DNA of 11,694 bases from Candidatus Hadarchaeota archaeon (GTDB taxonomy: Archaea; Hadarchaeota; Hadarchaeia; Hadarchaeales; Hadarchaeaceae), in contig JBFMBF010000031.1 in assembly GCA_040755315.1 (NCBI GenBank), forward strand, positions 1-11,694. The letters are read 5' to 3'. The position numbers and the translations under genes were made by a program. The notes beneath the pieces were generated by a model that saw nothing but the letters and a program-made list of their open reading frames with translations, did no database searches and was not told where the DNA came from. Positions 3 to 11,694 of the stretch are shown in pieces (within the stretch, counting starts at the first letter, position 1; every line of letters begins with the position of its first letter).

Positions 3-674
3 GACCTTTACATCTGTGGCCACATCCACTACAAGGTGGAAAGCTCGGCCCACGGCAAGCCCTTTTTGATACCTGGCAGCACAGAGAGGACCCAGCTGCT
101 CCTTCAGGAATCACAAATCCCAAAGGGATTCTACATGGTGGAGTGGGGAGACGGTGTGAAGTTCTGGTTCGTAGAGTTGGAAACTCCAAGAGACTTCTTC
201 TACGAGGAGATGAGGTTCAGTGAGACAAGTATCCCGGACCTCAATAAAACCGTCAGGGCGAAGGTGGAGGAGCTGCTGAAAAGGTTCAGGAAAAATCCAA
301 GGAAGTTGCCGCTCGTAAGATTGAGGCTGAAGGGGACGCTGGCAAAGGAGGCCTCGCGCGCCGACATAGACGAACACTCGATTACTCAGGAGTTCTCGGA
401 CAGAGTCCTGCTCGCGATTTCCAAAAGAGATCTAGCTGTTTCCGGCCTTGAGGAGAAGCTAGAGGCCCTGCGCGAGTTCAGGGAGAAGAAGATGTCGATA
501 GACGAGCAGGCGATGTCGCTTCTTGAGGATTTCCTGAAGGATGCCGAGCATGTGAAAATACTAGATGTCAGGGAGCTCTACGAGCTGCTGCTGGACGACA
601 GGGTGGACGAGGCTCTCGAAAGGATAGAGCGGCTCGTGGAGGGCCAGACGAGCGCGGAGGTTGAGGGCAAATGA
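3..674 (+). CDS. mre11: DNA double-strand break repair nuclease Mre11 (SbcD family), 5'-truncated by the window edge
   Basis: The frame is open from position 3: DLYICGHIHYKVE...FLIPGSTER. This contains the metallophosphoesterase GHxH motif and the following PGS motif, then a capping-domain-like segment (PLVRLRLKGTL). The stop TGA (672-674) overlaps the rad50 ATG (ATGA). The ORF-track start at 36 is internal. Confidence 0.9.
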   Translation, partial: DLYICGHIHYKVESSAHGKPFLIPGSTERTQLLLQESQIPKGFYMVEWGDGVKFWFVELETPRDFFYEEMRFSETSIPDLNKTVRAKVEELLKRFRKNPRKLPLVRLRLKGTLAKEASRADIDEHSITQEFSDRVLLAISKRDLAVSGLEEKLEALREFREKKMSIDEQAMSLLEDFLKDAEHVKILDVRELYELLLDDRVDEALERIERLVEGQTSAEVEGK

Positions 675-3073
675 TAACCCACCTGAAACTGAAGAATTGG
701 AAGTCACACGATGAAACAGAGCTGAGCTTCGGGGACGGCACGAATGTTCTTGTGGGAATAATGGGTGCAGGAAAAAGTGCTGTTCTTGACGGAATAACCT
801 ACGCCATCTTCGGTACCCTGCCAAACGTGAAAACCCGCAGGATAAAGCTGGAAGATTTGATAATGTCGCGGCCAAACAAGAAGGATCGGGCAGAGGTGGA
901 GGTCGGCTTCCTCACCCCAGACGAGACGGAGTATGTTGTGAAGCGGGTCATCGAAAGGGGGAAGGGGACAGTCGTCTGTGAGCTAAGAAAGGCCAGCGGA
1001 GAGCTGGTGGAGAGCGGGAGTTCCGACCGCGTCAACGAGAATATCAGGAGTTTGCTCGACATGGACTACGACCTCTACGAGAGGGCGGTTTATTCCGAGC
1101 AGAACAGGCTCGACTACTTCCTCACCCTCCAGAAGGGAGAGAGGATGAAGAGCATGGACCGGCTCTTGGGCATAGACAGGTGGGAGCTCGTCAGAAAAGG
1201 CCTCGGCACTCTTTCCAACAGAGTTTCTGACAGGGCGAAAGATTTGGCCGAAAGGGTTAGCCAACTGAAGATTGACCCCTCACTACCGAAGCTTCCAGAG
1301 TATGAACGGGATCTCGCGTCGCTCGAGGATTCAAAAAAACATATGGCAGATGAGCTGCGGAGGCTTAAGCCAGAGCTTGATGAACTTAACATGCGGGTTC
1401 AAAGCTACAGGGAACTGGAGCGCAGAATATCGGAGCTGGAAAGCAGGTACAGCGGGCTCGCGAGCGCAGTGAATGAGATTGAGAGCAGGGCCGAACAGTT
1501 GAGGGAGAGACTGGGTGTGGACGCTGACGTTGCAGCCGCCGAGCTGCAGGCCAAGGTACAGCGGCAGAGTCAGGACCATCTAAAAAAACTTTCTCTCCAG
1601 AGAAAGGCCGAGGCCGAAACTTCCAACGCCCTTCTGGAACTCCGTTCATCTGAAAATCAGCTTCAGTCCCTGAAGCAAGAGGCACAAAAGCTTTTGTCCG
1701 AAGTCGAGAGCCGCCGGAGGTCGAAGGAAGAGCTCGAGAAGATAAAGCCGGATGAGCTCAGGGCCTCAGTCGAGATAATGCAGTCTGAGATCCGCAGGTT
1801 GGGCGAGGAGCAGGCCGCGCTGAACGCTAGGACGGAGGACCTGAAGCACTCCATCTTTGACCTTTCAAAGGCGGAAGCTCAGTGCCCAGTTTGCGAGAGC
1901 GCCTTGGAGCAGGAAAAAAAGCAGGAGCTGGTCGCGAAAAAACAGTCGCAGCTGGAGGATTTCTTGAAGCGTTCGGCAGACATCGGGGCCAAGCTGGGGA
2001 GGCTGAGCAGCGACCTGAAGGCGAAGCTGGACCTCCAAGTTCGCGTCATCCTTCTGGTCAAAGACGCGGGAGAACTTCCTGTCAAAGAGGCAGATTACTC
2101 ACGAGTTTTGGAGCAGGCCAGGCTTTTGGAAGGGAAGCTACCAAACCTCCGTGCCGCATGGGAGGTTTCCGCGAAGGAGTCTGAAAGAATCAGGGCGGAA
2201 GCAGAGAATGCCCGCGGAGCGCTTGTTCAAGCCCAGCAGAAGCTTGACTTGAGGCTTGACCTAGAACGCCAGCAGTCAAGCAGGAAGGTGAAGCTTGATG
2301 AAAGCCTTCGGGTCAGGCTGGAGCTGGATGCGGCCAAGTCTTCTCACGATCCAGCGAGGGTGAAGGAGGTCGGGGAGAAGAGGGACCTTCTGCTGCAGAA
2401 GTGTTCAGAGCTCGACGCGAGGGCAAAGGGGATCAGCCAGCTAATCGCCGAGAAAGAAAACTTCGTGAGGAGCATAAGGGAAAAGCTCAGCGAAATCAGG
2501 CGCGGGGAGGTGAAGACGAAGCACCTTCAGAGGGCGGTAGAAGCTCTGGTCACGGTGCAGACTGCCGTGTCCAGAACCCAGACGGCCATGCGCCAGATGT
2601 TCATGGATGGGGTGAATGAAGTGCTAGGCGACTTCTGGGACAGCATTTACCCGTATGGTGACTACGTCGGAGTCAGGTTGGCGGTGGAGAGTGAGGAAAA
2701 GGGTAGCGACTATGTACTGCAGCTGAGGGACAGAGACGGCAACTGGGTTCCAGTTGAGGGGATGGCGAGCGGGGGCGAGAGGACATGCGCCTGTTTGGCA
2801 CTTAGGATAGCATTCTCAACTGTTCTGGCGCCGAACCTAAGCTGGATAGTATTCGACGAGCCCACCCACAACCTAGACAGCGAGGGGATACAGGAGCTGG
2901 CGAGGGCCATGAGAGAGCGGCTGCCCCAGAAGGTCAGGCAGATTTTGCTCATAACACACGAGGAAAGGCTGGAGGCGGCCGTGAGCGGCTATCTTTACAG
3001 GTTCTACCGAGACAAGGCGGCCGGCGAGCCGACTAGGGTCGAGAGGGCCTCTGCTCCGGAGCTGTTCGAGTGA
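671..3073 (+). CDS. rad50: DNA double-strand break repair ATPase Rad50 (SMC/SbcC family), 800 aa
   Basis: N-terminal LKLKNWKSH, Walker A GIMGAGKS, Q-loop YSEQ, long coiled coil with a central CPVC zinc hook (1883-1894, aa 405-408), signature ASGGE, Walker B/D-loop IVFDEPTHNLD and H-loop LITHE. It directly follows mre11. Confidence 0.96.
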   Translation: MITHLKLKNWKSHDETELSFGDGTNVLVGIMGAGKSAVLDGITYAIFGTLPNVKTRRIKLEDLIMSRPNKKDRAEVEVGFLTPDETEYVVKRVIERGKGTVVCELRKASGELVESGSSDRVNENIRSLLDMDYDLYERAVYSEQNRLDYFLTLQKGERMKSMDRLLGIDRWELVRKGLGTLSNRVSDRAKDLAERVSQLKIDPSLPKLPEYERDLASLEDSKKHMADELRRLKPELDELNMRVQSYRELERRISELESRYSGLASAVNEIESRAEQLRERLGVDADVAAAELQAKVQRQSQDHLKKLSLQRKAEAETSNALLELRSSENQLQSLKQEAQKLLSEVESRRRSKEELEKIKPDELRASVEIMQSEIRRLGEEQAALNARTEDLKHSIFDLSKAEAQCPVCESALEQEKKQELVAKKQSQLEDFLKRSADIGAKLGRLSSDLKAKLDLQVRVILLVKDAGELPVKEADYSRVLEQARLLEGKLPNLRAAWEVSAKESERIRAEAENARGALVQAQQKLDLRLDLERQQSSRKVKLDESLRVRLELDAAKSSHDPARVKEVGEKRDLLLQKCSELDARAKGISQLIAEKENFVRSIREKLSEIRRGEVKTKHLQRAVEALVTVQTAVSRTQTAMRQMFMDGVNEVLGDFWDSIYPYGDYVGVRLAVESEEKGSDYVLQLRDRDGNWVPVEGMASGGERTCACLALRIAFSTVLAPNLSWIVFDEPTHNLDSEGIQELARAMRERLPQKVRQILLITHEERLEAAVSGYLYRFYRDKAAGEPTRVERASAPELFE

Positions 3074-3088
3074 AAAGCGAAATACTGT
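3070..3088 (+). repeat. Left copy of a 19-bp imperfect direct repeat (gtgaaaagcgaaatactgt); partner at 10157-10175
   Basis: 17/19 identical to gtgaagagcgaaatattgt. Both mismatches are synonymous (AAA/AAG, CTG/TTG), and both copies begin at a GTG start codon. Confidence 0.75.
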
Positions 3089-3255
3089 TGCTTTCAAGCG
3101 GCGCCGTTACGTTGGCTTCTGCTCAAGACGGCAACGGCGGCTACGGGAACGGGGGCAACGGTTATGGAAATGGGAACGGTTACGGGGACGGAAACGGTTA
3201 CAACGGCGGCGGGAACGGCAATGATGGTAATGGTTACGAGCCGGAGCCCCCGGAA
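3085..3255 (+). repeat. Diverged direct repeat of the giant gene's signal-peptide/GNG region (partner ~4221-4398)
   Basis: 3104-3134 matches 4240-4270 at 30/31 nt. 3157-3184 matches 4341-4368 exactly (aacggttatggaaatgggaacggttacg, 28 nt). Confidence 0.92.
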
Positions 3256-3285
3256 CATCTTTAGTTATCTGCCCAGCGGACCTCG

Positions 3286-4137
3286 TTAGACAACATAATC
3301 TGGAGTCATAACATAACCCACCAGAGTTTTTTCAGAATGTTTTGTTTTATTGAAGTATAACTGGCCCCCCAGCGTCCACACTGTTGTCGAATCGTACACA
3401 ACTTTAACTGTAAGTTGTGATTCTGGAATCCAAGAAATTTGAGTAAAACTTGAGTTCCCCATCATCTCTATTTTGGAATCTGGAGCGTTAAATATTATTG
3501 TGCCACTATACTGTCCAGTCTGGCGCAACACATAACTTTCAAAAGTCCCGGCGGGAACAGTCACATTTTCTTTGCGAACAACTTCTGTTATCGTCGTTAT
3601 TTGTGCATTTGCTGAAGTGTTTTGTTCAAAGTCGGACTCGGAGAACGTTCCATTATCTGAAAAAGTATTTCCCACTCGCAGTGGAGTTTCATAAAGAAAA
3701 AGAGGTTTGTCCCAAAATTCTTCGCGTATTTTAAACTCGTCGCGGCGGAAGTATTCCCTTATCACATGAGAATAAGCACGGTTGTCCATGGCAGGTAAAT
3801 AATAATACAGTGAATAAGTATCGGGCTCGGCCGTGTTAAAAAACTTGTAAACCCAATAGTTCTCGCCACGCAACGTTCTATTTTCAATATACCGCGCCAT
3901 TTCAAAGTAAGATTTGGCAGTTTTTTCTCCAGTAATTAAATCATTCTCCTGCGCCTTAACTTCCCATGTTTGTGTCCATTTCTCACCTTTGTAGAGCCAC
4001 ACCACATAGACAACTGGAATTATAAAAATAGCGATAAATAAAAAAAGGAAAAATATTTTAAGCTTTGCCTGCCCTTTTTTCTCCCAAGTAATAACCGATT
4101 TCTTTGAACTGGATACGCCACGATTCGGTTGAGCCAT
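3286..4137 (-). CDS. Single-pass membrane-anchored hypothetical protein (~283 aa) with a beta-rich extracellular domain carrying an 'ExVTVPAGTF' motif (DUF3108/TapB-like)
   Basis: The likely start is ATG at 4137 (MAQPNRG...), which avoids overlap with the divergent gene. A basic N-terminus precedes a hydrophobic helix IFFLFLFIAIFIIPVVYVVWLY. Other motifs are PLRVGNTF and ENVTVPAGTFESYVL, plus several N-x-S/T sequons. The gene is AT-rich compared with its flanks. Confidence 0.8.
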   Translation of the reverse strand: MAQPNRGVSSSKKSVITWEKKGQAKLKIFFLFLFIAIFIIPVVYVVWLYKGEKWTQTWEVKAQENDLITGEKTAKSYFEMARYIENRTLRGENYWVYKFFNTAEPDTYSLYYYLPAMDNRAYSHVIREYFRRDEFKIREEFWDKPLFLYETPLRVGNTFSDNGTFSESDFEQNTSANAQITTITEVVRKENVTVPAGTFESYVLRQTGQYSGTIIFNAPDSKIEMMGNSSFTQISWIPESQLTVKVVYDSTTVWTLGGQLYFNKTKHSEKTLVGYVMTPDYVV

Positions 4138-4178
4138 CACTACCCTTAAAAGTTGTATTAGAAAGTTAATAAGGTAGG
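4138..4178. promoter_or_regulatory. Putative compact divergent archaeal promoter region (41 bp between two ATGs)
   Basis: TTAAAA at 4146-4151 lies ~28-33 nt before ATG 4179 (+). TTATTAA on the - strand (4172-4166) lies ~29-35 nt before ATG 4137. This spacing suits TATA boxes of leaderless or short-leader transcripts. Confidence 0.4.
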
Positions 4179-7100
4179 ATGAAGGCTGGACCCATATTGG
4201 CACTAGCCCTAGTGTGTATGCTAGTTTTGTCAGGTGGCACCGTTACGTTGGCCTCTGCTCAAGACGGCAATGGTGGAGGTTATGGGAACGGTGGCAATGG
4301 GGATGGTTATGGTAATGGTTACGATGGCGGAAATGGAGGTAACGGTTATGGAAATGGGAACGGTTACGAACCGCCCGACTATTCGGAGCCTCCAGAATAC
4401 CCAGAACAAGAGTACCCAGAACTTGGAGATGTATGGGATCAGCTACAGGGGCAAACGGAATGGCTGGGGGACTGGTATTCCCAATATGAACAATATACGG
4501 ACGATTATTCAAGGGATTGGCTTTATGAAAAGTTGGAAGAGCGGGCGCAGTGGGCCGTATACGAGCAGGACCCAAGTTACCATCTTGAGTATCAGGCACC
4601 CATTCAGAAAATGAATAGTGTTGTGGAAAGCTTAGGTATTTGGCAAGAATTCGGGTGGTATGCGATATTGGATGGTAAAGAGGTTTGGGCGCAGTTTCCA
4701 GAATCAGACATATTTCCAAATATATGGAAAGATTTGTGGGGTGAAACAACAATAGAAATTATACCATTACAAACGTACCTTCCCTCGCCGGGCGAGTCTC
4801 CACCTTTTGAATATCCTACGGTGGGAAACTATTCCATTTACAACTACTTAGACAGCGACGGTAGAGAAGGATATGAACATGCTCAAGAAGATGTTCGTTT
4901 AACAATAATGGAGGTCCAAGAAGAATTTCAAGCCTCGTTTGATGATTATTATTCAGACATCTCCAACATGGCAGAGGCATATGAAATAGACTATAATGAC
5001 TTGGAGGCTCTGCACCTAGCGTATATTGGCGCTGAGGGCCCACAAGAACAGGAAATACTAAGAGAAGCGTATTCAGCCAAAGCGATTGAGCTGTGGAACA
5101 CATACTGGGAATTAGAAAAAGAAGCGATGCAAATGGGTCAGGAGGTAAAAGAGCGTCTGGAGTATATCAAAGACGTTGGTTATGATTTATTCATGGACGC
5201 TCTACTGCGTTGGGACTCGTTAGATGTAATACTTGGAAGTTCGGCTGATTTGCATGTTTACGATTCGTTGGGGCGGCATGTTGGGATTAACTACGAGACT
5301 GGCGAGGTAGAAACGATGATTCCAGATGCAGAATTTATGTTTATTGAAAATATTGATAACACGTTGTTAGATGAGCGCGTTCAAGCAATTTACATAAGGA
5401 ATCCAAGTGAAGAAGCTTACGGAGTGGAAATCATTGGGACTGAAGATGGCAGTTACACTTTAATTACCGTTGGGGACATTGAGAACACTTTTGTTTATTG
5501 GTGGAAATCCAAGGTTTCAACATCCAGCGAAGAAAACCACTCGTACATTATCTCTGTTTCTCCAGTCATGCTAAACCCCCCAGACGGCCTGCTAGCAACG
5601 GACAACACTCCAAACTTTGATTGGGAACCCATCAACAAGCTCCTCGGCAAGTACGATGTCCAGATTGACGACGACGCTTATTTTTCATCGCCAACTATCG
5701 CAGTTTCGTTAAAAACTGACAACTACACTCCAGTGGTCGGGCTCGCCGATGGACATTATTATTGGCGCGTCCGCGTCGTGGACATGGCTGGCAACCCAAG
5801 CCCGTGGTCAGAAACTCAGCAGTTCACAATCGACACCAAGCCACCAGCTTCAGCCGTCGACCAGGTCAGCTCTTTCTGGCGGAAAGAAGTCCCGTTCTAC
5901 GTTAGCGTGACGGCGAGCGACGGCCTGAGCGGCGTTGAGAGTGTTGAGCTGTTCTACCGCTATTCAAATGACAACTCAAGCTGGGGTTCGTGGACATCTT
6001 TTGGTGCTGACAACCTCGCGCCTTACTTGTGGACATTCGACGCTCCGGAGGGCGACGGCTACTATCAGTTTTACTCTGTCGCCTTTGACCACGCTGGCAA
6101 CGCTGAGCTGCCAGACCTCGGCGCAAAAGCAACAAAGAATCTCCTTCCAACCGACGATCTGTACACAAGCCAATGGGGCACTTGGAGCCACGCGCAGGAA
6201 ATAGGAGTGGACGCCTACAACGTGAGCTACTTAAAATTCGACCTGTCGGGTTTGCCTGCAGGCAGCGCCATAGCGTCCGCAAAGCTTCACCTCATGTTAA
6301 AGGCCGCGGAGGACGGTGGCCAAAAAGCGGTTGTTAAAATTGGCAACGTGGAAAACGACGCTTGGTCGGAAGATTCGTTTGTGTGGGAAAGCAGGCCGCC
6401 AGTTGGGGCAACGCTGGATAATTTAACAATACAATCTTTTACAGGGGTGGACTGCGGCTCTCCAGCTTGGCACCAGTTTGAAGTCACCGAGTTCGTCGCC
6501 GACCAGTTCCAAAAAGATGCGGTTGCAAGTTTCGCATTGTTGAGCGAGGAAGATGACCTCATAGTTTACTTTGTTTCGAAGGACGGTACTTCAGCATACC
6601 CGAGTGAGTACAAACCATACCTTGAAGTCGCGTATCTTTCCCCGCTGCCGGATGCTTGGTCTGGCGTTGACACTGTGACCCCTGAGTCTGTTGTGGGTCA
6701 GACAAAGTCCTACTGGCAGAATGCGTTGATGGTTCCGTTCGAAATAAGTGCCGCCGCGTCAGACCCAATTCCAACCAACGAGGCAATGCCGAGCGGGGTC
6801 AAGTCAGTAAGTTTGTATTACAGATACTCTTTGGACAACTTAACCTGGGGAGAATGGAAACTTTACGGCGTCGACGGCGGCAAGCCCTGGAGGTGGGAAT
6901 TTGATGCTCCAGAAGGGGACGGGTACTACGAGTTCCGCAGCGCGGCCTCCGATGCTGCAGGCAACGAAGAGGCCGTCACACAGAGGTTCATCGAGCATTT
7001 CGCTGATTCACTTGACACTGGAACGTGGTCGGTGGGCAATGTTAGAGTAAAGTACGACAACGTCCGGGTTTTGGACGGTCGGCTGGAGATGAGTGCCCGG

Positions 7101-10070
7101 GCCAACAAATCCGGGGAGTACGGGGCTCTTTACCTGGTTTCAAAAGAGAGGTTCGACATCTCCCAAGGCCTGGTTGTGGACGTTCAAATGACGGTTCCGA
7201 CAGACAACGCCCCAGCCGACTTCCGCAGCGAGTTCTATCTGGCGTCAGCGTTCACGACGGGCACAAACCCGCATGATTTGCCCGATTGGCTCAGGGTCTC
7301 CGCCAGCGTGGACCGAAACGGCGTCACTTGGATGCTCCAGCGAAAGCGGCTCAGCGCGGGCGTGGGCTTGGGCACGCTTTACACGAGCGGCTCCACTCAC
7401 AATCTCAGCGGAACTTGGAAAATCGCCATCAACGGCGAAAACTTCTCAGTCTGGCTTGACAACCAGCAGGTTGAAAACTGGAGGCCTCACGGGCTTCCGT
7501 TCACAAATGCTTACGTTTACCTAGCGGAGCGCACAAAGGTCGCTCCTGTTTACACAGTGAGCTTCGGCCACGTCTTGGTACAGGAGCTGGCGGACGCGAG
7601 CGCCGGAGTTGACACCACGTCGCCCCAATCATCCGTGACTCCAACGGAGCGGTACTGGCAAAACGCGGGGATGGTGCCGCTCGACGTGACGGCCACCGCA
7701 GGCGATTCTGCACCGCAGAGCAGGGCAGTGCCAAGCGGACTTGAAACAGTCACCCTCTGGTATCGTTACTCGCCAGATAATTTGGATAATGGAAAATGGT
7801 TGAGGTTCGGCATTAATGATCATGAGCCTTGGGGATGGAAGTTCGGCGCACAATGGGGCGAGGGACACTATGGGTTCATAAGCGAAGCTAGGGATGTCGC
7901 CGGAAACACTAGCCTCCCGTCAACGTTGTTAATGGCCAGATTGAGGGGAGACGGGGGGATTGATTATGTTGAAGAGGAAGGAGAATACGGCACGTATCTT
8001 CGCCCGGTGCCACACATCAGCTGGATTGAAATCGAGGGAGAAGGCGTCAGCGGATACTGGGAAAACGGCTGGCCAAGGTGGATAGACATGAATGTGCTTG
8101 GCGTGGACTTTGTCGTGAAAGCCGAGGTTGAGGAGATGTGGTCGGAAGCTCCCCTGCCATACGATTCCGTATACGAGTTTGAAGGGTTCAGCGGACGGCT
8201 ATGGCTCCCGGAGCCGGTTTTGGCTGGCGATATCGAAATACTTGCGGTGGATGGGATCATCGCGGGCATGCCCGACAACATATCCGGCGAAGTCAGAGTG
8301 ACGGTAAGGTCCGTGCACACGCTTGACGCGGAGGTGGAGATAGGCGTCGACGCGACGCCGCCGGCATCGTATGTGGATCCAATCGAGCCATACTGGCAGG
8401 TCGACACGCCTTTCACCGTGACGGCATCGATGAAGAATGCGGAAAATGTGAACGTGACGTACAAACTGGAAGAAAACACGCGCAACTTTTTCGCGCTGTT
8501 TGAAGGAGAAGTCGAGTGGACACAGCTTGCGCCAGCGCCTTTCACGGCTTTGAAGACAGGGCCGATTATTGTTGATGGGCATTGGCGCTACAGAAGCGCG
8601 GGCATATGGCGCGTCACCCCCGACGGCGGGAGAATCATAGGCAGAAACTTTGACGAGGGAGTAGATGATCGCCTGTGGGAATATGATGTGGACCGCGACC
8701 AGTGGCACTATATAGTAGACACTCAGGGATTGGGTGAGTGGAGAACCATAACAGACAACAACAGAATGTTTATCTTGGGCGTGAATGGCCATCCCAACCC
8801 GCTTTACATCTATGATTTCAGAACCCACGCGCTGCACAAGATCAATTATTCGATCCCGGAGTTTTATCAGGAGGACGGCACGTTCCGGGTGAATTATCTG
8901 CAGGGCTGGAAAGAAAAGACGGGGGAGCTGTTTGTGGGGACATTTTACGAGCGGTACAATTACTGGCAGGAAGCCAACATGGTGTACCTGCCTTGGAGGG
9001 GCGAGTGGAAGTATCGGTGGGGGCCGCTGCCTCAAGATGCTGACACAAACGTAAGCTATTTCGACGATTGGGAAAGTTCGCTGCAGAAAATAGTAACGGT
9101 AGACCGTATCATGCCGAAGGAGACCAGCGGCACAGCCAAAGTTGAACTTTATTATCGGTACTCCCCCGACAACTCCACATGGGGTGACTGGAAGATGTTT
9201 GCTTCAGACGGCGAGGCACCATACGAGTGGTCCTTCGACATACCCGCGGGTCACGGGTTCTACGAGTTCTACTCCGTGGCGATTGACGTGGCCAGCAACA
9301 TCGAGGACGCACCCGACGAGGCAGACGCCCGCTGCGCCACCCTGATACCGGCAATGATTGACATCGACCCGGACACACTGAACCTGCGAAACAACGGGGG
9401 CTGGATAACCGCGTACATTGAGCTGTTGCCCGGCTTTGACGTTTCAAAAATCAGGATTGACACAGTCGCGGTTGAGGGGGAGACCATCCTCCAGAGCGCA
9501 GTTCCAGCGGTGTCCGACCCGAAGTATGGGTTCGTGAAGGACCCAGAAATCAAGGACCGCGATGGGGACGGGCTGCCGGAGCTGATGGTAAAGTTTGACA
9601 GGGCAGCGGTGCAAGCTCTGCTAGAGGCAGGAAAAAATGTGGAAATAACAGTCATCGGCAGGTGGGGCGAGGCGCCGTTCCGCGGAAGCGACAACATCCG
9701 GGTGATCGACTTGGGCTGGGGGCAGGGAACCAGCAACGGCCACGGAAACAATCAATCACTGTCAGGCCAGTCCGGAGCGAACCAGGGGCATGGGGCGCAA
9801 GATACGCCGCCGAGACATGGTGGGCAGTCCTCCGAACAGGGCGATCAAGGGAAGGGACAAGGACCGCCTCAGACGCTACCGGGTCATGATGATCAGCCGC
9901 AAGCCCAAACAAATGGAGCGGGCAACCAAGGAAATCAGAGCCAACGTCAAAGCGACTTAAATAGGAACCAAGGCAACCAAAGTAGTCAAAACGGTCAGGA
10001 ACAGCAAGGTAATTCAAGCGGCAACCAAGGCGGCCAAGGACAGGGAAAAGTCAATGGCAAGAACAAATAA
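4179..10070 (+). CDS. Giant secreted multidomain cell-surface/adhesin-like protein, 1963 aa
   Basis: Domain order: Sec signal peptide (aa 1-27, ASA|Q); GNG/GYG repeats; acidic W/Y-rich region; SADLHVYDxxGRHVG module; Fn3/Ig-like domain (TDNTPNFDW...GHYYWRVRVVDMAGN); four Ig-like repeats (DxxxPxS...YRYSxDN...W...DxAGN) carrying inserted domains; a C-terminal domain (IDIDPDTLNL...DRDGDGLPELMVKFDR); and a Q/G/N-rich tail. It is one uninterrupted 5.9 kb ORF. Confidence 0.9.
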   Translation: MKAGPILALALVCMLVLSGGTVTLASAQDGNGGGYGNGGNGDGYGNGYDGGNGGNGYGNGNGYEPPDYSEPPEYPEQEYPELGDVWDQLQGQTEWLGDWYSQYEQYTDDYSRDWLYEKLEERAQWAVYEQDPSYHLEYQAPIQKMNSVVESLGIWQEFGWYAILDGKEVWAQFPESDIFPNIWKDLWGETTIEIIPLQTYLPSPGESPPFEYPTVGNYSIYNYLDSDGREGYEHAQEDVRLTIMEVQEEFQASFDDYYSDISNMAEAYEIDYNDLEALHLAYIGAEGPQEQEILREAYSAKAIELWNTYWELEKEAMQMGQEVKERLEYIKDVGYDLFMDALLRWDSLDVILGSSADLHVYDSLGRHVGINYETGEVETMIPDAEFMFIENIDNTLLDERVQAIYIRNPSEEAYGVEIIGTEDGSYTLITVGDIENTFVYWWKSKVSTSSEENHSYIISVSPVMLNPPDGLLATDNTPNFDWEPINKLLGKYDVQIDDDAYFSSPTIAVSLKTDNYTPVVGLADGHYYWRVRVVDMAGNPSPWSETQQFTIDTKPPASAVDQVSSFWRKEVPFYVSVTASDGLSGVESVELFYRYSNDNSSWGSWTSFGADNLAPYLWTFDAPEGDGYYQFYSVAFDHAGNAELPDLGAKATKNLLPTDDLYTSQWGTWSHAQEIGVDAYNVSYLKFDLSGLPAGSAIASAKLHLMLKAAEDGGQKAVVKIGNVENDAWSEDSFVWESRPPVGATLDNLTIQSFTGVDCGSPAWHQFEVTEFVADQFQKDAVASFALLSEEDDLIVYFVSKDGTSAYPSEYKPYLEVAYLSPLPDAWSGVDTVTPESVVGQTKSYWQNALMVPFEISAAASDPIPTNEAMPSGVKSVSLYYRYSLDNLTWGEWKLYGVDGGKPWRWEFDAPEGDGYYEFRSAASDAAGNEEAVTQRFIEHFADSLDTGTWSVGNVRVKYDNVRVLDGRLEMSARANKSGEYGALYLVSKERFDISQGLVVDVQMTVPTDNAPADFRSEFYLASAFTTGTNPHDLPDWLRVSASVDRNGVTWMLQRKRLSAGVGLGTLYTSGSTHNLSGTWKIAINGENFSVWLDNQQVENWRPHGLPFTNAYVYLAERTKVAPVYTVSFGHVLVQELADASAGVDTTSPQSSVTPTERYWQNAGMVPLDVTATAGDSAPQSRAVPSGLETVTLWYRYSPDNLDNGKWLRFGINDHEPWGWKFGAQWGEGHYGFISEARDVAGNTSLPSTLLMARLRGDGGIDYVEEEGEYGTYLRPVPHISWIEIEGEGVSGYWENGWPRWIDMNVLGVDFVVKAEVEEMWSEAPLPYDSVYEFEGFSGRLWLPEPVLAGDIEILAVDGIIAGMPDNISGEVRVTVRSVHTLDAEVEIGVDATPPASYVDPIEPYWQVDTPFTVTASMKNAENVNVTYKLEENTRNFFALFEGEVEWTQLAPAPFTALKTGPIIVDGHWRYRSAGIWRVTPDGGRIIGRNFDEGVDDRLWEYDVDRDQWHYIVDTQGLGEWRTITDNNRMFILGVNGHPNPLYIYDFRTHALHKINYSIPEFYQEDGTFRVNYLQGWKEKTGELFVGTFYERYNYWQEANMVYLPWRGEWKYRWGPLPQDADTNVSYFDDWESSLQKIVTVDRIMPKETSGTAKVELYYRYSPDNSTWGDWKMFASDGEAPYEWSFDIPAGHGFYEFYSVAIDVASNIEDAPDEADARCATLIPAMIDIDPDTLNLRNNGGWITAYIELLPGFDVSKIRIDTVAVEGETILQSAVPAVSDPKYGFVKDPEIKDRDGDGLPELMVKFDRAAVQALLEAGKNVEITVIGRWGEAPFRGSDNIRVIDLGWGQGTSNGHGNNQSLSGQSGANQGHGAQDTPPRHGGQSSEQGDQGKGQGPPQTLPGHDDQPQAQTNGAGNQGNQSQRQSDLNRNQGNQSSQNGQEQQGNSSGNQGGQGQGKVNGKNK
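4260..4370 (+). repeat. Coding low-complexity Gly-Asn/Gly-Tyr repeats (QDGNGGGYGNGGNGDGYGNGYDGGNGGNGYGNGNGYE)
   Basis: Directly visible in the translation, immediately after the predicted signal peptide cleavage site. Confidence 0.9.
5832..9341 (+). repeat. Four diverged Ig-like protein repeats starting at ~5832, 6669, 7611 and 8349
   Basis: Shared pattern: D-T/A-x-x-P-x-S-x-V, (F/Y)W, P(F/L)x(V/I)xxxAxD/S, SG, VxL(F/Y/W)YRYSxDN, W, PxxWxF, GxGxYxFxSxAxDxAxN. Confidence 0.88.
6117..6640 (+). other. DNRLRE-type (CBM96/disaggregatase-related) domain within the giant protein
   Basis: Hallmark pattern: SYLKFDLSGLPAGSAIASAKLHL, W-S-E-xx-xx-W-xx-R-P (WSEDSFVWESRP), FEVTEFV, FVSKDG and a terminal KPYLEV. 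Confidence 0.75.
9711..10067 (+). repeat. Coding Gln/Gly/Asn-rich low-complexity C-terminal tail with recurring NQG units
   Basis: ANQGHG, GNQGNQS, RNQGNQSS, GNQGGQG. The sequence aaccaagg recurs at the DNA level. There is no hydrophobic segment. Confidence 0.88.
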
Positions 10071-10141
10071 ATCCACATTGTTTGTAGTGTTTTGCAACAA
10101 ATTCATTGTAACGGCTGTCCGCCGCCGAGTTAGTGAAACTT

Positions 10142-10159
10142 TTTTAGGTGTTTTAGGTG
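10142..10159 (+). promoter_or_regulatory. Tandem 9-bp repeat (ttttaggtg x2) providing an AGGTG Shine-Dalgarno site and the GTG start of the kinase-like gene
   Basis: ttttaggtg occurs at 10142-10150 and 10151-10159. AGGTG at 10146-10150 lies 6 nt upstream of GTG 10157. Confidence 0.55.
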
Positions 10160-10175
10160 AAGAGCGAAATATTGT
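10157..10175 (+). repeat. Right copy of the 19-bp imperfect direct repeat (gtgaagagcgaaatattgt)
   Basis: 17/19 identical to 3070-3088 and also encodes MKSEIL. Confidence 0.75.
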
Positions 10176-10687
10176 GTTTAAATAGGAAGCCAAGGCTGGT
10201 CGGCAGGGGGATGTACAGGGAAGTTTACAGGTTAGGGAAGATGGTGATAAAACTGGAGAGGAACGAAAGGAGCGAGCAGGCTGCTCTGCACGCCCGGGCC
10301 GTGAAGACAGACAACCGCAACAAAACGCTGTCGGATGAGTTGAACTTCCTCCCAAAGTATCATGGGGCGGCGCTGGTGGGCGTCAAATCTGGTAAAAAGG
10401 TCAGGCCAGCGCTAGCTACCTTCCACGAGTACATCGAGCCGCTCCCGGTATTTTCCCCGCAGAACATCAAGCCGATACTGCTGCTACTCCTCGAAGCCGG
10501 GGAGAGGGGCTACATCTTGGACATAAAGCCCGGAAACTTTGGGAGGAAAGGGAAAAAACTGTACTACTTGGATGAGTACGGAGTCGGCAAAAGCCCCATC
10601 CCGCCAGATGTCATGGAAGAATTCAGCACTTTTCTCCAGTCAGCTCTGAAAATGCTCAGGCTGGACAGGCTATCCCGTAAGCGGTGA
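10157..10687 (+). CDS. Minimal protein-kinase-like (PKL fold) protein, 176 aa
   Basis: Gly-rich loop LVGRGMYREVY, beta3 lysine MVIK, hinge HEYIEP, catalytic loop ILDIKPGNF (DxxxxN) and metal-binding YYLDEYG (DFG-equivalent). Confidence 0.75.
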   Translation: MKSEILCLNRKPRLVGRGMYREVYRLGKMVIKLERNERSEQAALHARAVKTDNRNKTLSDELNFLPKYHGAALVGVKSGKKVRPALATFHEYIEPLPVFSPQNIKPILLLLLEAGERGYILDIKPGNFGRKGKKLYYLDEYGVGKSPIPPDVMEEFSTFLQSALKMLRLDRLSRKR

Positions 10688-11692
10688 GAGCTCTTTCACA
10701 ATCTGTTCAACAACTGCTGATGCTGCGCCCAAGTACTTGCTCGGGTCCATCAGCTCCTGAAGTCTCTTTGCCGGAACAATTTTGGTTACCTGCGGTTCCT
10801 TCAGAAGGACCTGGAGCAGCGTGGAGTTCTTTTCAATCGCCTTGGTTGTGCACTTCCTGAGGAGGGCGTGCGCCTCCTGACGGCTTGCCCCGCCTTTCGT
10901 GAGTTCTATCATCACCGCCTCGGCCATGTTCAGCCCCTTCATGTGTTCAAGATTGCGTTTCATGTTTTCCGAGAAGACGCGGAGTCCATCGAAAACCTTG
11001 ATGGTGGACTTGAGCATCTCGTCCGTGAGCAGGAACGATTCCGGAAGGATCACTCTCTCGCAGGCGGAGTTTGTAAGGTCGCGCTCGTGCTCCAGCACCA
11101 TGTTCTCCAGAGCCGCCCCAGCGTCCGCCCTCGCCACCCTCGCGAGGCCGCATATCTTCTCGCACCTGATGGGATTCCTCTTGTGTGGCATGGTGCTGCT
11201 GCCAACCTGCCCCTCGGCGAACGGCTCCGCCAGCTCCCCAATGTCTGTGCGCTGGAGGTTTCGGACTTCTCGAGCCATTTTTTCCAATGTTCCAGCCAAA
11301 AGTCCGAAGAATGACATTAGCTCCGCCAGTCGGTCTCTCTGCAGAATTTGGTTGGAAGCTTTTGCAGCACCCAGGCCGAGCTCTTTCATCACAATCTCCT
11401 GAATCATGATTGCTTTTTCACCCCAAGCGGCACCAGTTCCGACGGCGCCGCTCATCTTCCCGACCAAGATGCGAGGCTTCAACTGCCCAAGACGTTCGAT
11501 GTGTCGCCCCAACTCAGATGCCCAGATTGCTAGCTTAAGCCCAAGAGTCGTCGGTACCGCGTGTTGCCCGTGGGTTCTCCCAACCATGACAGTGTTTTTG
11601 TGATTTTTGGCAAGGCGGAGAATGATGCCGAGCAATTTCTTCAGGTCTCGTTCCACTATTTTCAGGGCGGCCTTGATTTGCAGGGCAGTCGC
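10670..11692 (-). CDS. purB: Adenylosuccinate lyase, 5'-truncated by the window edge
   Basis: The frame is open to the window edge (ATALQIKAALKIVERDL). Motifs: GRTHGQHAVPTT, GKMSGAVGT, QILQRDR, the fumarate-lyase-family signature GSSTMPHKRNP, and HERDLTNS. It overlaps the kinase 3' end by 18 bp. Confidence 0.95.
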   Translation of the reverse strand, partial: ATALQIKAALKIVERDLKKLLGIILRLAKNHKNTVMVGRTHGQHAVPTTLGLKLAIWASELGRHIERLGQLKPRILVGKMSGAVGTGAAWGEKAIMIQEIVMKELGLGAAKASNQILQRDRLAELMSFFGLLAGTLEKMAREVRNLQRTDIGELAEPFAEGQVGSSTMPHKRNPIRCEKICGLARVARADAGAALENMVLEHERDLTNSACERVILPESFLLTDEMLKSTIKVFDGLRVFSENMKRNLEHMKGLNMAEAVMIELTKGGASRQEAHALLRKCTTKAIEKNSTLLQVLLKEPQVTKIVPAKRLQELMDPSKYLGAASAVVEQIVKELSPLTG

Positions 11693-11694
11693 AG

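Follow-up and report, generated by a model that had tools for sequence, protein, structure and literature searches.

A 7.1-kb block bracketed by two near-identical gene starts is inserted between rad50 and a protein-kinase-fold gene in a Hadarchaeota archaeon

How do several kilobases of DNA that encode no recombinase come to lie at the very start of a gene whose reading frame is complete? The question is raised by contig C31 of the Candidatus Hadarchaeota archaeon assembly GCA_040755315.1 (hereafter G000; 1.21 Mb in 50 contigs, 86.6% complete), which was analyzed over its whole length of 11,694 nucleotides (nt) and is called the window in what follows. Its gene order is the end of mre11, rad50, an open reading frame (ORF) of 64 amino acids (aa), a minus-strand gene for 283 aa, a gene for 1963 aa (the giant gene), a 176-aa ORF with a protein-kinase fold (the kinase) and the convergent gene purB. 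An earlier note, made from the sequence alone, had pointed out that the 64-aa and 176-aa ORFs both begin with MKSEIL, and direct comparison bears this out: the two copies of the start (Table 1) lie 7087 bp apart and agree at 17 of 19 nt, with both differences synonymous (Lys AAA/AAG and Leu CTG/TTG). The rad50 stop codon overlaps the GTG of the left copy by 4 nt (GTGA). The same note proposed that the block between the copies had been inserted at the 5′ end of the kinase gene, whose start was regenerated on the far side.

The relatives agree with this proposal. In the congener G002, used here as empty-site reference, the rad50 stop and the kinase start overlap by 4 nt and are followed by MKSEILC, which identifies MKSEIL as the true kinase N-terminus; the kinase ortholog of G002 carries the label Candidatus Hadarchaeota in the protein collection. 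The kinase was detected in 24 of 60 other genomes, and in 13 of these 24 the end of rad50 lies within approximately 35 nt of the kinase start; among the others, G021 has a 259-bp gap, G030 a 1794-bp unrelated insert, and nine have no rad50 end within 1.5 kb. Within family f1, rad50 directly precedes the kinase in 13 of the 17 genomes that have the latter, as it does in both metagenome loci (2/2), whereas in other lineages the two are apart (G030, G021, G036 and G007). The synteny comparison that the earlier note had proposed thus confirms that the 7.1-kb block was inserted at the start of a kinase gene which, in relatives, is coupled directly to rad50. Of the other kinase loci, 26 in all, 24 were examined with flanks of 1.5 kb; at none of the 26 was a giant gene found beside the kinase, nor had a related element reused the site.

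Two of these junctions deserve a description of their own. G030 holds at the rad50/kinase junction (L041:9741-11533) an independent 1.8-kb insert of small minus-strand genes, without junction repeat, whose genes are homologs of a cluster on G000 contig C29, pilin-like by eye and without Pfam match. The 259-bp remnant of G021 (L040) has the same two ends as the G030 insert. As for the reference itself, the G002 bin has 8% contamination and matches G000 unevenly, with a mean identity of 84%, 92% across kinase and purB, and 98% across the first kilobase of the window. Three of its contigs, C10, C71 and C76, are 98-100% identical to the window ends (1-1009 and 11644-11694), against a G002 average of 84%, and end at the same 51-nt stretch, which suggests either mixed populations in the G002 bin or a recent exchange at mre11/rad50.

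The kinase has kept its full 176-aa frame. Between G000 and G002 it shows 24 synonymous and 11 non-synonymous changes, and the ratio of non-synonymous to synonymous rates of approximately 0.14 means that it stayed functional for most of the time since the two diverged. To judge from its sequence, the gene is intact and would have been restored by an end that the insert supplied: six bases ahead of its GTG, a Shine-Dalgarno-like AGGTG (10146-10150) can be read directly and is its putative ribosome-binding signal. A sigma-70 scan, which does not cover archaeal promoters, returned no site. Moreover, the duplicated start is singular. In the whole G000 assembly, only these two sites match either 19-nt copy with at most two mismatches, and a scan of all candidate gene starts of G000 returned 25 upstream copies at that threshold, just two of them directly after the stop of a long ORF and both in this island. 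Adjacency of rad50 and kinase in relatives, MKSEIL as the genuine N-terminus and a 19-mer confined to two sites are the opposite of the three observations that the earlier note had listed as grounds for abandoning its insertion.

We then turned to the junctions. The copies share an identical core of 9 bp only, and gapped similarity between the repeat regions reaches approximately 45 nt; towards the right, the score of the gapped similarity to the empty kinase allele was reached by 1 of 400 shuffles. At the first variable site the G002 base is found in the left copy, and at the second in the right copy. Each copy thus has the G002 allele on its host-facing side, and no later mutation is needed. 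When the block is removed in silico via the 9-bp core, the G002 allele is recovered at both variable positions and rad50 is again coupled to the kinase, as the earlier note had expected of such a deletion. Non-identical sequences joined at two places, or by a single crossover, would be expected to leave such a pattern, but two positions make it weak evidence. A decayed rad50 end within the right copy was also considered and is not supported, as its leftward score was reached by 33 of 400 shuffles.

The left end is more than a displaced gene start. Downstream of the left copy, the sequence resembles the empty kinase allele with gaps and also the signal-peptide region of the giant gene, and from position 3094 on it is a copy of the end of the giant gene's signal peptide and of its Gly/Asn repeat (78.5% identity over 107 nt). 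The left end is therefore an in-frame fusion into a cargo gene, made where host and cargo are loosely alike. The 64-aa mini-ORF that results has no entry in the protein collection. Against the 5′ end of the giant gene, it has nine synonymous and two non-synonymous differences within two blocks aligned without gaps (ratio 0.08), and across 56 aligned codons, which are repetitive, the ratio is 0.15. This predominance of synonymous differences indicates either that the source of the fragment was a functional paralog or allele, or that selection acts on the fragment itself. The G+C content of the fragment at third codon positions (GC3) is host-like (0.61), as in most of the giant gene beyond residue 460 (0.61-0.72), while residues 1-460 of the giant protein (0.41-0.42) and the minus-strand gene (0.37) are lower. 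Mini-ORF and giant 5′ end thus bracket a low-GC minus-strand gene and make up a nested duplication of a gene start, the second at this locus. Two histories would account for it: displacement of the giant gene's first start by a low-GC block that came later, or a tandem array already present in the donor; a comparable array is present in an island of G002, where two plus-strand ORFs with near-identical N-termini have a minus-strand gene between them.

Based on these observations, we consider it likely, with a probability of roughly 0.6, that the block was inserted without an integrase and with duplication of the target, from DNA of a related archaeon joined to the host at two places by short homology, and that the product survived through an initiation signal supplied by the donor. 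On the left, the host strand would have departed from the kinase gene at roughly the end of codon 5 and continued in the signal-peptide region of a paralog of the giant gene, at a point of loose resemblance between the two, giving the in-frame MKSEIL mini-ORF. On the right, donor DNA ending in a ribosome-binding site and GTG AAG would have rejoined the host slightly upstream of the first joint, by a few bases. Whatever host sequence lies between the two joints, which is the 9-bp core at a minimum, would thereby have become duplicated, with flanking near-matches completing the 17/19 repeat. The product would have survived because the kinase kept its full frame and likely received a new initiation signal. 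Microhomology-mediated end joining with Mre11/Rad50 has been shown in Haloferax (PMC12281630). Among the options raised by the earlier note, arrival by recombination fits best, while its framing as an integrative element with an attachment (att) site, mobilized in trans, is not supported: the block holds no recombinase, and neither att arms nor terminal inverted repeats were detected.

Comparable repeats are found at other differences between G000 and G002. The comparison covered 1.01 of the approximately 1.1 Mb of G002 by alignments of at least 200 nt at 72% identity or more, and counted insertions or deletions (indels) of at least 300 bp. Eleven of the 44 indels have direct junction repeats scoring at least 11, as against 9 of 600 random window pairs (a null without gene-boundary matching); at a score of at least 12 the direct repeats number 9/44 and inverted ones 1/44. 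The 33 remaining indels have no junction repeat. The eleven repeats measure 14-65 nt and are of unrelated sequence with unrelated cargo; by eye, those at the other insertions share no sequence with the 19-nt repeat. Five correspond to 3′ ends of transfer RNA (tRNA) genes (one called by ARAGORN, four by eye), four to 3′ ends of protein genes, one is the start described here, and one, the C2 event, is unclassified. The protein genes, named by eye, include argJ-like, pheT-like and MoaD-like genes and a fourth that we take to be tfs; as G002 also holds a pheT-like stub, the pheT-like event predates the split of the two genomes. The cargo comprises Fic (by Pfam) and, by eye, nucleotidyltransferase-HEPN, RelE-like and ATPase genes. 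The same generic process would likely be behind the other gene-end and tRNA-end duplications of the genus.

Several of these indels are instructive individually. In G002 (L052, ~16900-18140), a 1.2-kb insert with a Fic domain adjoins the 3′ end of the argJ-like gene and shows a perfect repeat of 16 bp there. The gene now has a foreign homologous tail, its native tail being displaced. In G000 (C9, 40450-41527), a nucleotidyltransferase-HEPN-like pair lies between 65-bp repeats (64/65 identical) of the 3′ end of the MoaD-like gene. Five inserts of 0.35-6.3 kb have 15-20-bp repeats of apparent tRNA 3′ ends (G000 C19 16156-22408, C19 12463-13878 and C11 2681-3035, together with L109 and L134), and no tyrosine recombinase was found on the G000 contigs that carry tRNA-end inserts. 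In addition, a TFB-like gene of G000 (C39, 4496-6009) has a 1512-bp in-frame insertion, probably an intein, that is absent from G002.

Some results weigh against an integrase-free insertion by short homology. The inverted-orientation control, in the same windows, reached a score of at least 11 at 4/44 indels, some of them ends of insertion sequences (IS), and five of the eleven direct repeats lie at tRNA ends, which are classic integrase targets. The G000 assembly is 86.6% complete and may thus lack an integrase gene that the organism has. The allele pattern, for its part, concerns two positions; about half the time, an exact duplication followed by drift would lead to the same pattern. Furthermore, the first 36 nt of the kinase differ from G002 at seven positions against a background of 5.9% (p = 0.0045, for a window picked after inspection), an excess that may reflect a longer donor-supplied 5′ end. 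Finally, the donor was not found. Residues 1-174 of the giant protein match 0 of 64 other genomes, and a search of 120 other genomes with the left part of the island (DNA 3030-5700) returned only the flank and two marginal matches; DNA 9840-10200 in 65 genomes, and residues 1-467 of the giant protein against 1.84 billion representatives, gave no donor either. Unlike in the MIC island discussed below, no donor sequence is thus available to check the joints, and the mechanism is inferred. A 21-nt near match to 10138-10158 in three genomes of genus g7 (E 0.017-0.25) was rejected as chance; it falls in an unrelated intergenic region in the two g7 genomes inspected, and the motif is single-copy in G000.

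Of the other explanations, one-sided homologous replacement survives best, although we regard it as unlikely. It supposes that, in the donor lineage, the giant gene already preceded the kinase allele of that lineage, and that homologous recombination within kinase/purB was combined with one illegitimate joint on the left; the right copy and the first ~12 codons would then be a foreign allele and not a duplication, and the native start would have been displaced. The differences within the first 36 nt of the kinase (7/36), mostly towards A or T, suit this explanation, as do the foreign homologous ends found past the repeat in the argJ-like and presumed tfs cases and the separation of kinase and rad50 in the four other-lineage genomes named above. 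Nevertheless, a start that loses its translational coupling is expected to become enriched in A and T, which counts against a replacement, and none of the 26 other kinase loci has the adjoining giant gene that such a donor requires. Moreover, a replacement merely pushes the first insertion back by one step.

A more far-reaching account keeps the two short-homology joints and reads more into them. It holds that Hadarchaeota routinely capture giant secreted-protein genes and small cassettes at gene termini, without a recombinase, by joints that exploit host translation signals, a start-codon capture that we consider rather doubtful. At this locus, the rad50-coupled kinase start would have given a start codon and a charged n-region to the incoming signal peptide, switching the cargo on, while a donor ribosome-binding site restarted the kinase; this step is equally tentative. 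No more probable is the sequel, in which a nested start replacement would then have given the giant protein its low-GC N-terminus, the whole being reversible via the 9-bp core. If true, start-codon capture would be a route to strain-specific archaeal cell surfaces.

It is also quite unlikely that the block is the remnant of a site-specific integrative element, with the two copies as attL and attR formed by one crossover in the 9-bp core and the integrase lost or acting in trans. The allele pattern is what a single crossover between attP and attB would produce; targeting of a gene 5′ end with supply of a new N-terminus and promoter is known for dusA elements and SXT (10.1101/2021.06.18.448947), and in thaumarchaea att sites frequently measure less than 26 bp, some of them being in protein genes (PMC6563490). 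Tyrosine recombinase genes (PF00589) are also present in G002 and in another relative, G001. Against this, ORFs and Pfam searches revealed within the block no recombinase, integrase, transposase, casposase, replication or transfer gene and no remnant of one, in agreement with the earlier note, which had seen neither integrase nor transposase inside. Inverted att-like arms around a 6-8-bp overlap reach at best 6/11, the mode of the null (447 of 500 random windows reach at least 6), no related element has reused the site at the 26 other loci, and the left end cuts into the signal peptide of a cargo gene. The genome-wide recombinase search advised by that note gave a mixed answer: PF00239 and PF16795 had no match in G000, as far as it is complete, and the sole PF00589 gene, integron-integrase-like by eye, lies on a separate, foreign-looking contig of 7.4 kb (C40). 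On that contig (L112) the gene adjoins a GNAT gene, and the contig's genes look bacterial by eye, so that it is a possible contaminant of the bin.

Related giant genes adjoin different housekeeping genes in G000, G002, G004 and G013, and the other giant-gene island with both ends comparable, in G002, has no junction repeat, which means that the repeat is not a hallmark of the family. That island (L080:1-9243 and L032:1-4488) spans at least 13 kb of secreted- and membrane-protein genes, with tandem ORFs sharing N-termini, and the genes that flank it are adjacent on G000 contig C24. No second island of the kind described here was found in the relatives searched.

It is highly improbable that a transposase or casposase working in trans duplicated the target site and that each copy then took on one mutation. 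A length of 9 or 19 bp would lie within known ranges (19-26 bp is cited for IS1630 in PMC2853133), and G000 has IS-like elements, one of them with terminal inverted repeats and an 8-9-bp duplication; however, no transposase is encoded inside the block, inverted similarity between the island ends scores 8, a value reached by 44 of 300 random pairs, and the ends of the C6 IS-like element are absent from the window at up to four mismatches. An assembly chimera or a chance repeat is hardly credible. The locus is known from one assembly and bins can be mixed (G002 C10 matches the window start at 98% identity, as against 82% for G000 elsewhere), but the repeat lies exactly at the breakpoint set by the empty allele and has no further match in the genome, the ancestral order of host genes is kept on either side, and a 19-nt repeat that is imperfect and shorter than the 51-nt contig overlap of the assembly is a poor seed for a mis-join.

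Table 1. Features of the locus in window coordinates.
Feature	Position	Strand	Basis or remark
rad50, host gene left of the insertion	671..3073	+	Pfam SMC_N, AAA_23, Rad50_zn_hook; ORF
Left repeat copy, apparently the displaced native kinase start (codons 1-6); host allele at first variable site	3070..3088	+	sequence comparison
9-bp core AGCGAAATA, same in both copies and in the empty G002 allele	3076..3084	+	sequence comparison
Chimeric mini-ORF of 64 aa, in which kinase codons 1-6 run in frame into a signal-peptide end and a giant-type Gly/Asn-rich repeat	3070..3264	+	
Diverged copy of the 5′ region of the giant gene	3094..3256	+	partner ~4230-4400, offset 1136 bp at 5′ end
283-aa protein	3286..4137	-	one hydrophobic stretch (by eye); GC3 0.37
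1963-aa modular, likely secreted giant protein	4179..10070	+	signal-peptide-like start, Ig-like (Big_13) and CBM96 domains
Region upstream of the restored kinase, apparently insert-supplied	10071..10156	+	no counterpart at G002 empty site
Right repeat copy, apparently the restored kinase start; host allele at second variable site; core 10163-10171	10157..10175	+	
176-aa protein-kinase-fold gene, intact, under purifying selection	10157..10687	+	
purB (adenylosuccinate lyase), 3′ part, convergent host gene on right flank	10670..11694	-	Pfam Lyase_1, ADSL_C

The cargo itself is of host-lineage type. The giant protein has many paralogs in G000 and relatives, an N-terminal portion of 460 aa of low GC, and a tail rich in Gly, Gln and Asn. 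A surface protein, as in the earlier note's designation of the block, is suggested by the signal-peptide-like start and the domains listed in Table 1; no C-terminal anchor was seen on the protein. Its residues ~76-340 (window 4404-5200) are acidic, rich in Tyr, Trp and Glu and of low GC, and have no convincing relative among 1.84 billion representatives. The 283-aa protein has a weak DUF3108-like match, under the cut-off, and a 41% paralog on G000 contig C4; Pfam returned no restriction-modification genes in the block.

The 176-aa ORF has no Pfam family match. Its AlphaFold2 model, built with 15 homologs, has a predicted local distance difference test (pLDDT) score of 84.9 and gave 116 protein-kinase-fold matches at E ≤ 0.001, with template modeling (TM) scores mostly of 0.4-0.55; the conserved kinase residues Lys32, Asp122, Asn127 and Asp139 are present. 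The gene belongs to a minimal protein-kinase-fold family present in 25 of the 56 Hadarchaeota genomes searched, usually coupled to mre11-rad50, and this family is a candidate for a DNA-repair-linked kinase.

Overall, the locus offers a clean case of integrase-free gene gain in an archaeon, for which a congener provides the empty site, although the organism is uncultured and no new element or enzyme is revealed. The scar lies at a gene start, while the archaeal cases compared below involve 3′ ends or tRNAs. Such repeats mark approximately one quarter of the indels that separate the two congeners. A deep-subsurface lineage may therefore owe much of its accessory genome to this route, to which island finders that rely on an integrase would be blind. 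No paper on Hadarchaeota islands was found in a search that excluded subscription journals.

The scar resembles several described systems. Insertion with long target duplication, as presented by Kobayashi (PMC2853133), likewise concerns inserts of less than 20 kb without mobility genes, leaves an imperfect copy of a unique target and is defined by an empty-site relative, and a gene fusion at a junction is also reported there; however, that class carries restriction-modification cargo and repeats of more than 30 bp, with no archaeal case passing the filter in that report, whereas the repeat here is 19 bp, ungapped, and the block is free of restriction-modification genes. The dusA elements, and SXT/R391 at prfC, share with this locus the insertion at a gene 5′ end, an imperfect repeat of ~20 bp and an element-supplied start with upstream signals (10.1101/2021.06.18.448947, PMC4344509). 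According to the same sources, those elements bring their own dedicated tyrosine integrase, occupy the same site in many genomes and excise; nothing of the kind was seen here. Cryptic integrated elements of thaumarchaea also have short direct repeats and are validated by empty sites, with 14 of 68 in protein-coding genes (PMC6563490). Their protein-gene targets are 3′-distal and the elements are treated there as mobile, in contrast to a 5′ start and secreted-protein genes of the host lineage at this locus. The MIC island of M. maripaludis, whose ycaO-derived direct repeats are explained by two 9-nt motifs (PMC12667266), stands nearer: it is archaeal, measures ~10 kb, goes without mention of an integrase in the main text and is flanked by direct repeats from a host protein gene that remains functional. 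Its first cargo gene is 5′-truncated with a possible new in-frame GTG start, as at the left end here (PMC12667266). The MIC repeat is 221 bp long and lies at the gene 3′ end; its source DNA has been identified, and the island has been seen to be lost (PMC12667266), whereas here a 19-bp repeat at the 5′ end brackets secreted-protein cargo. The left joint at the present locus resembles both host and cargo. In our analysis, the type of scar is already known, with the MIC island as its closest precedent.

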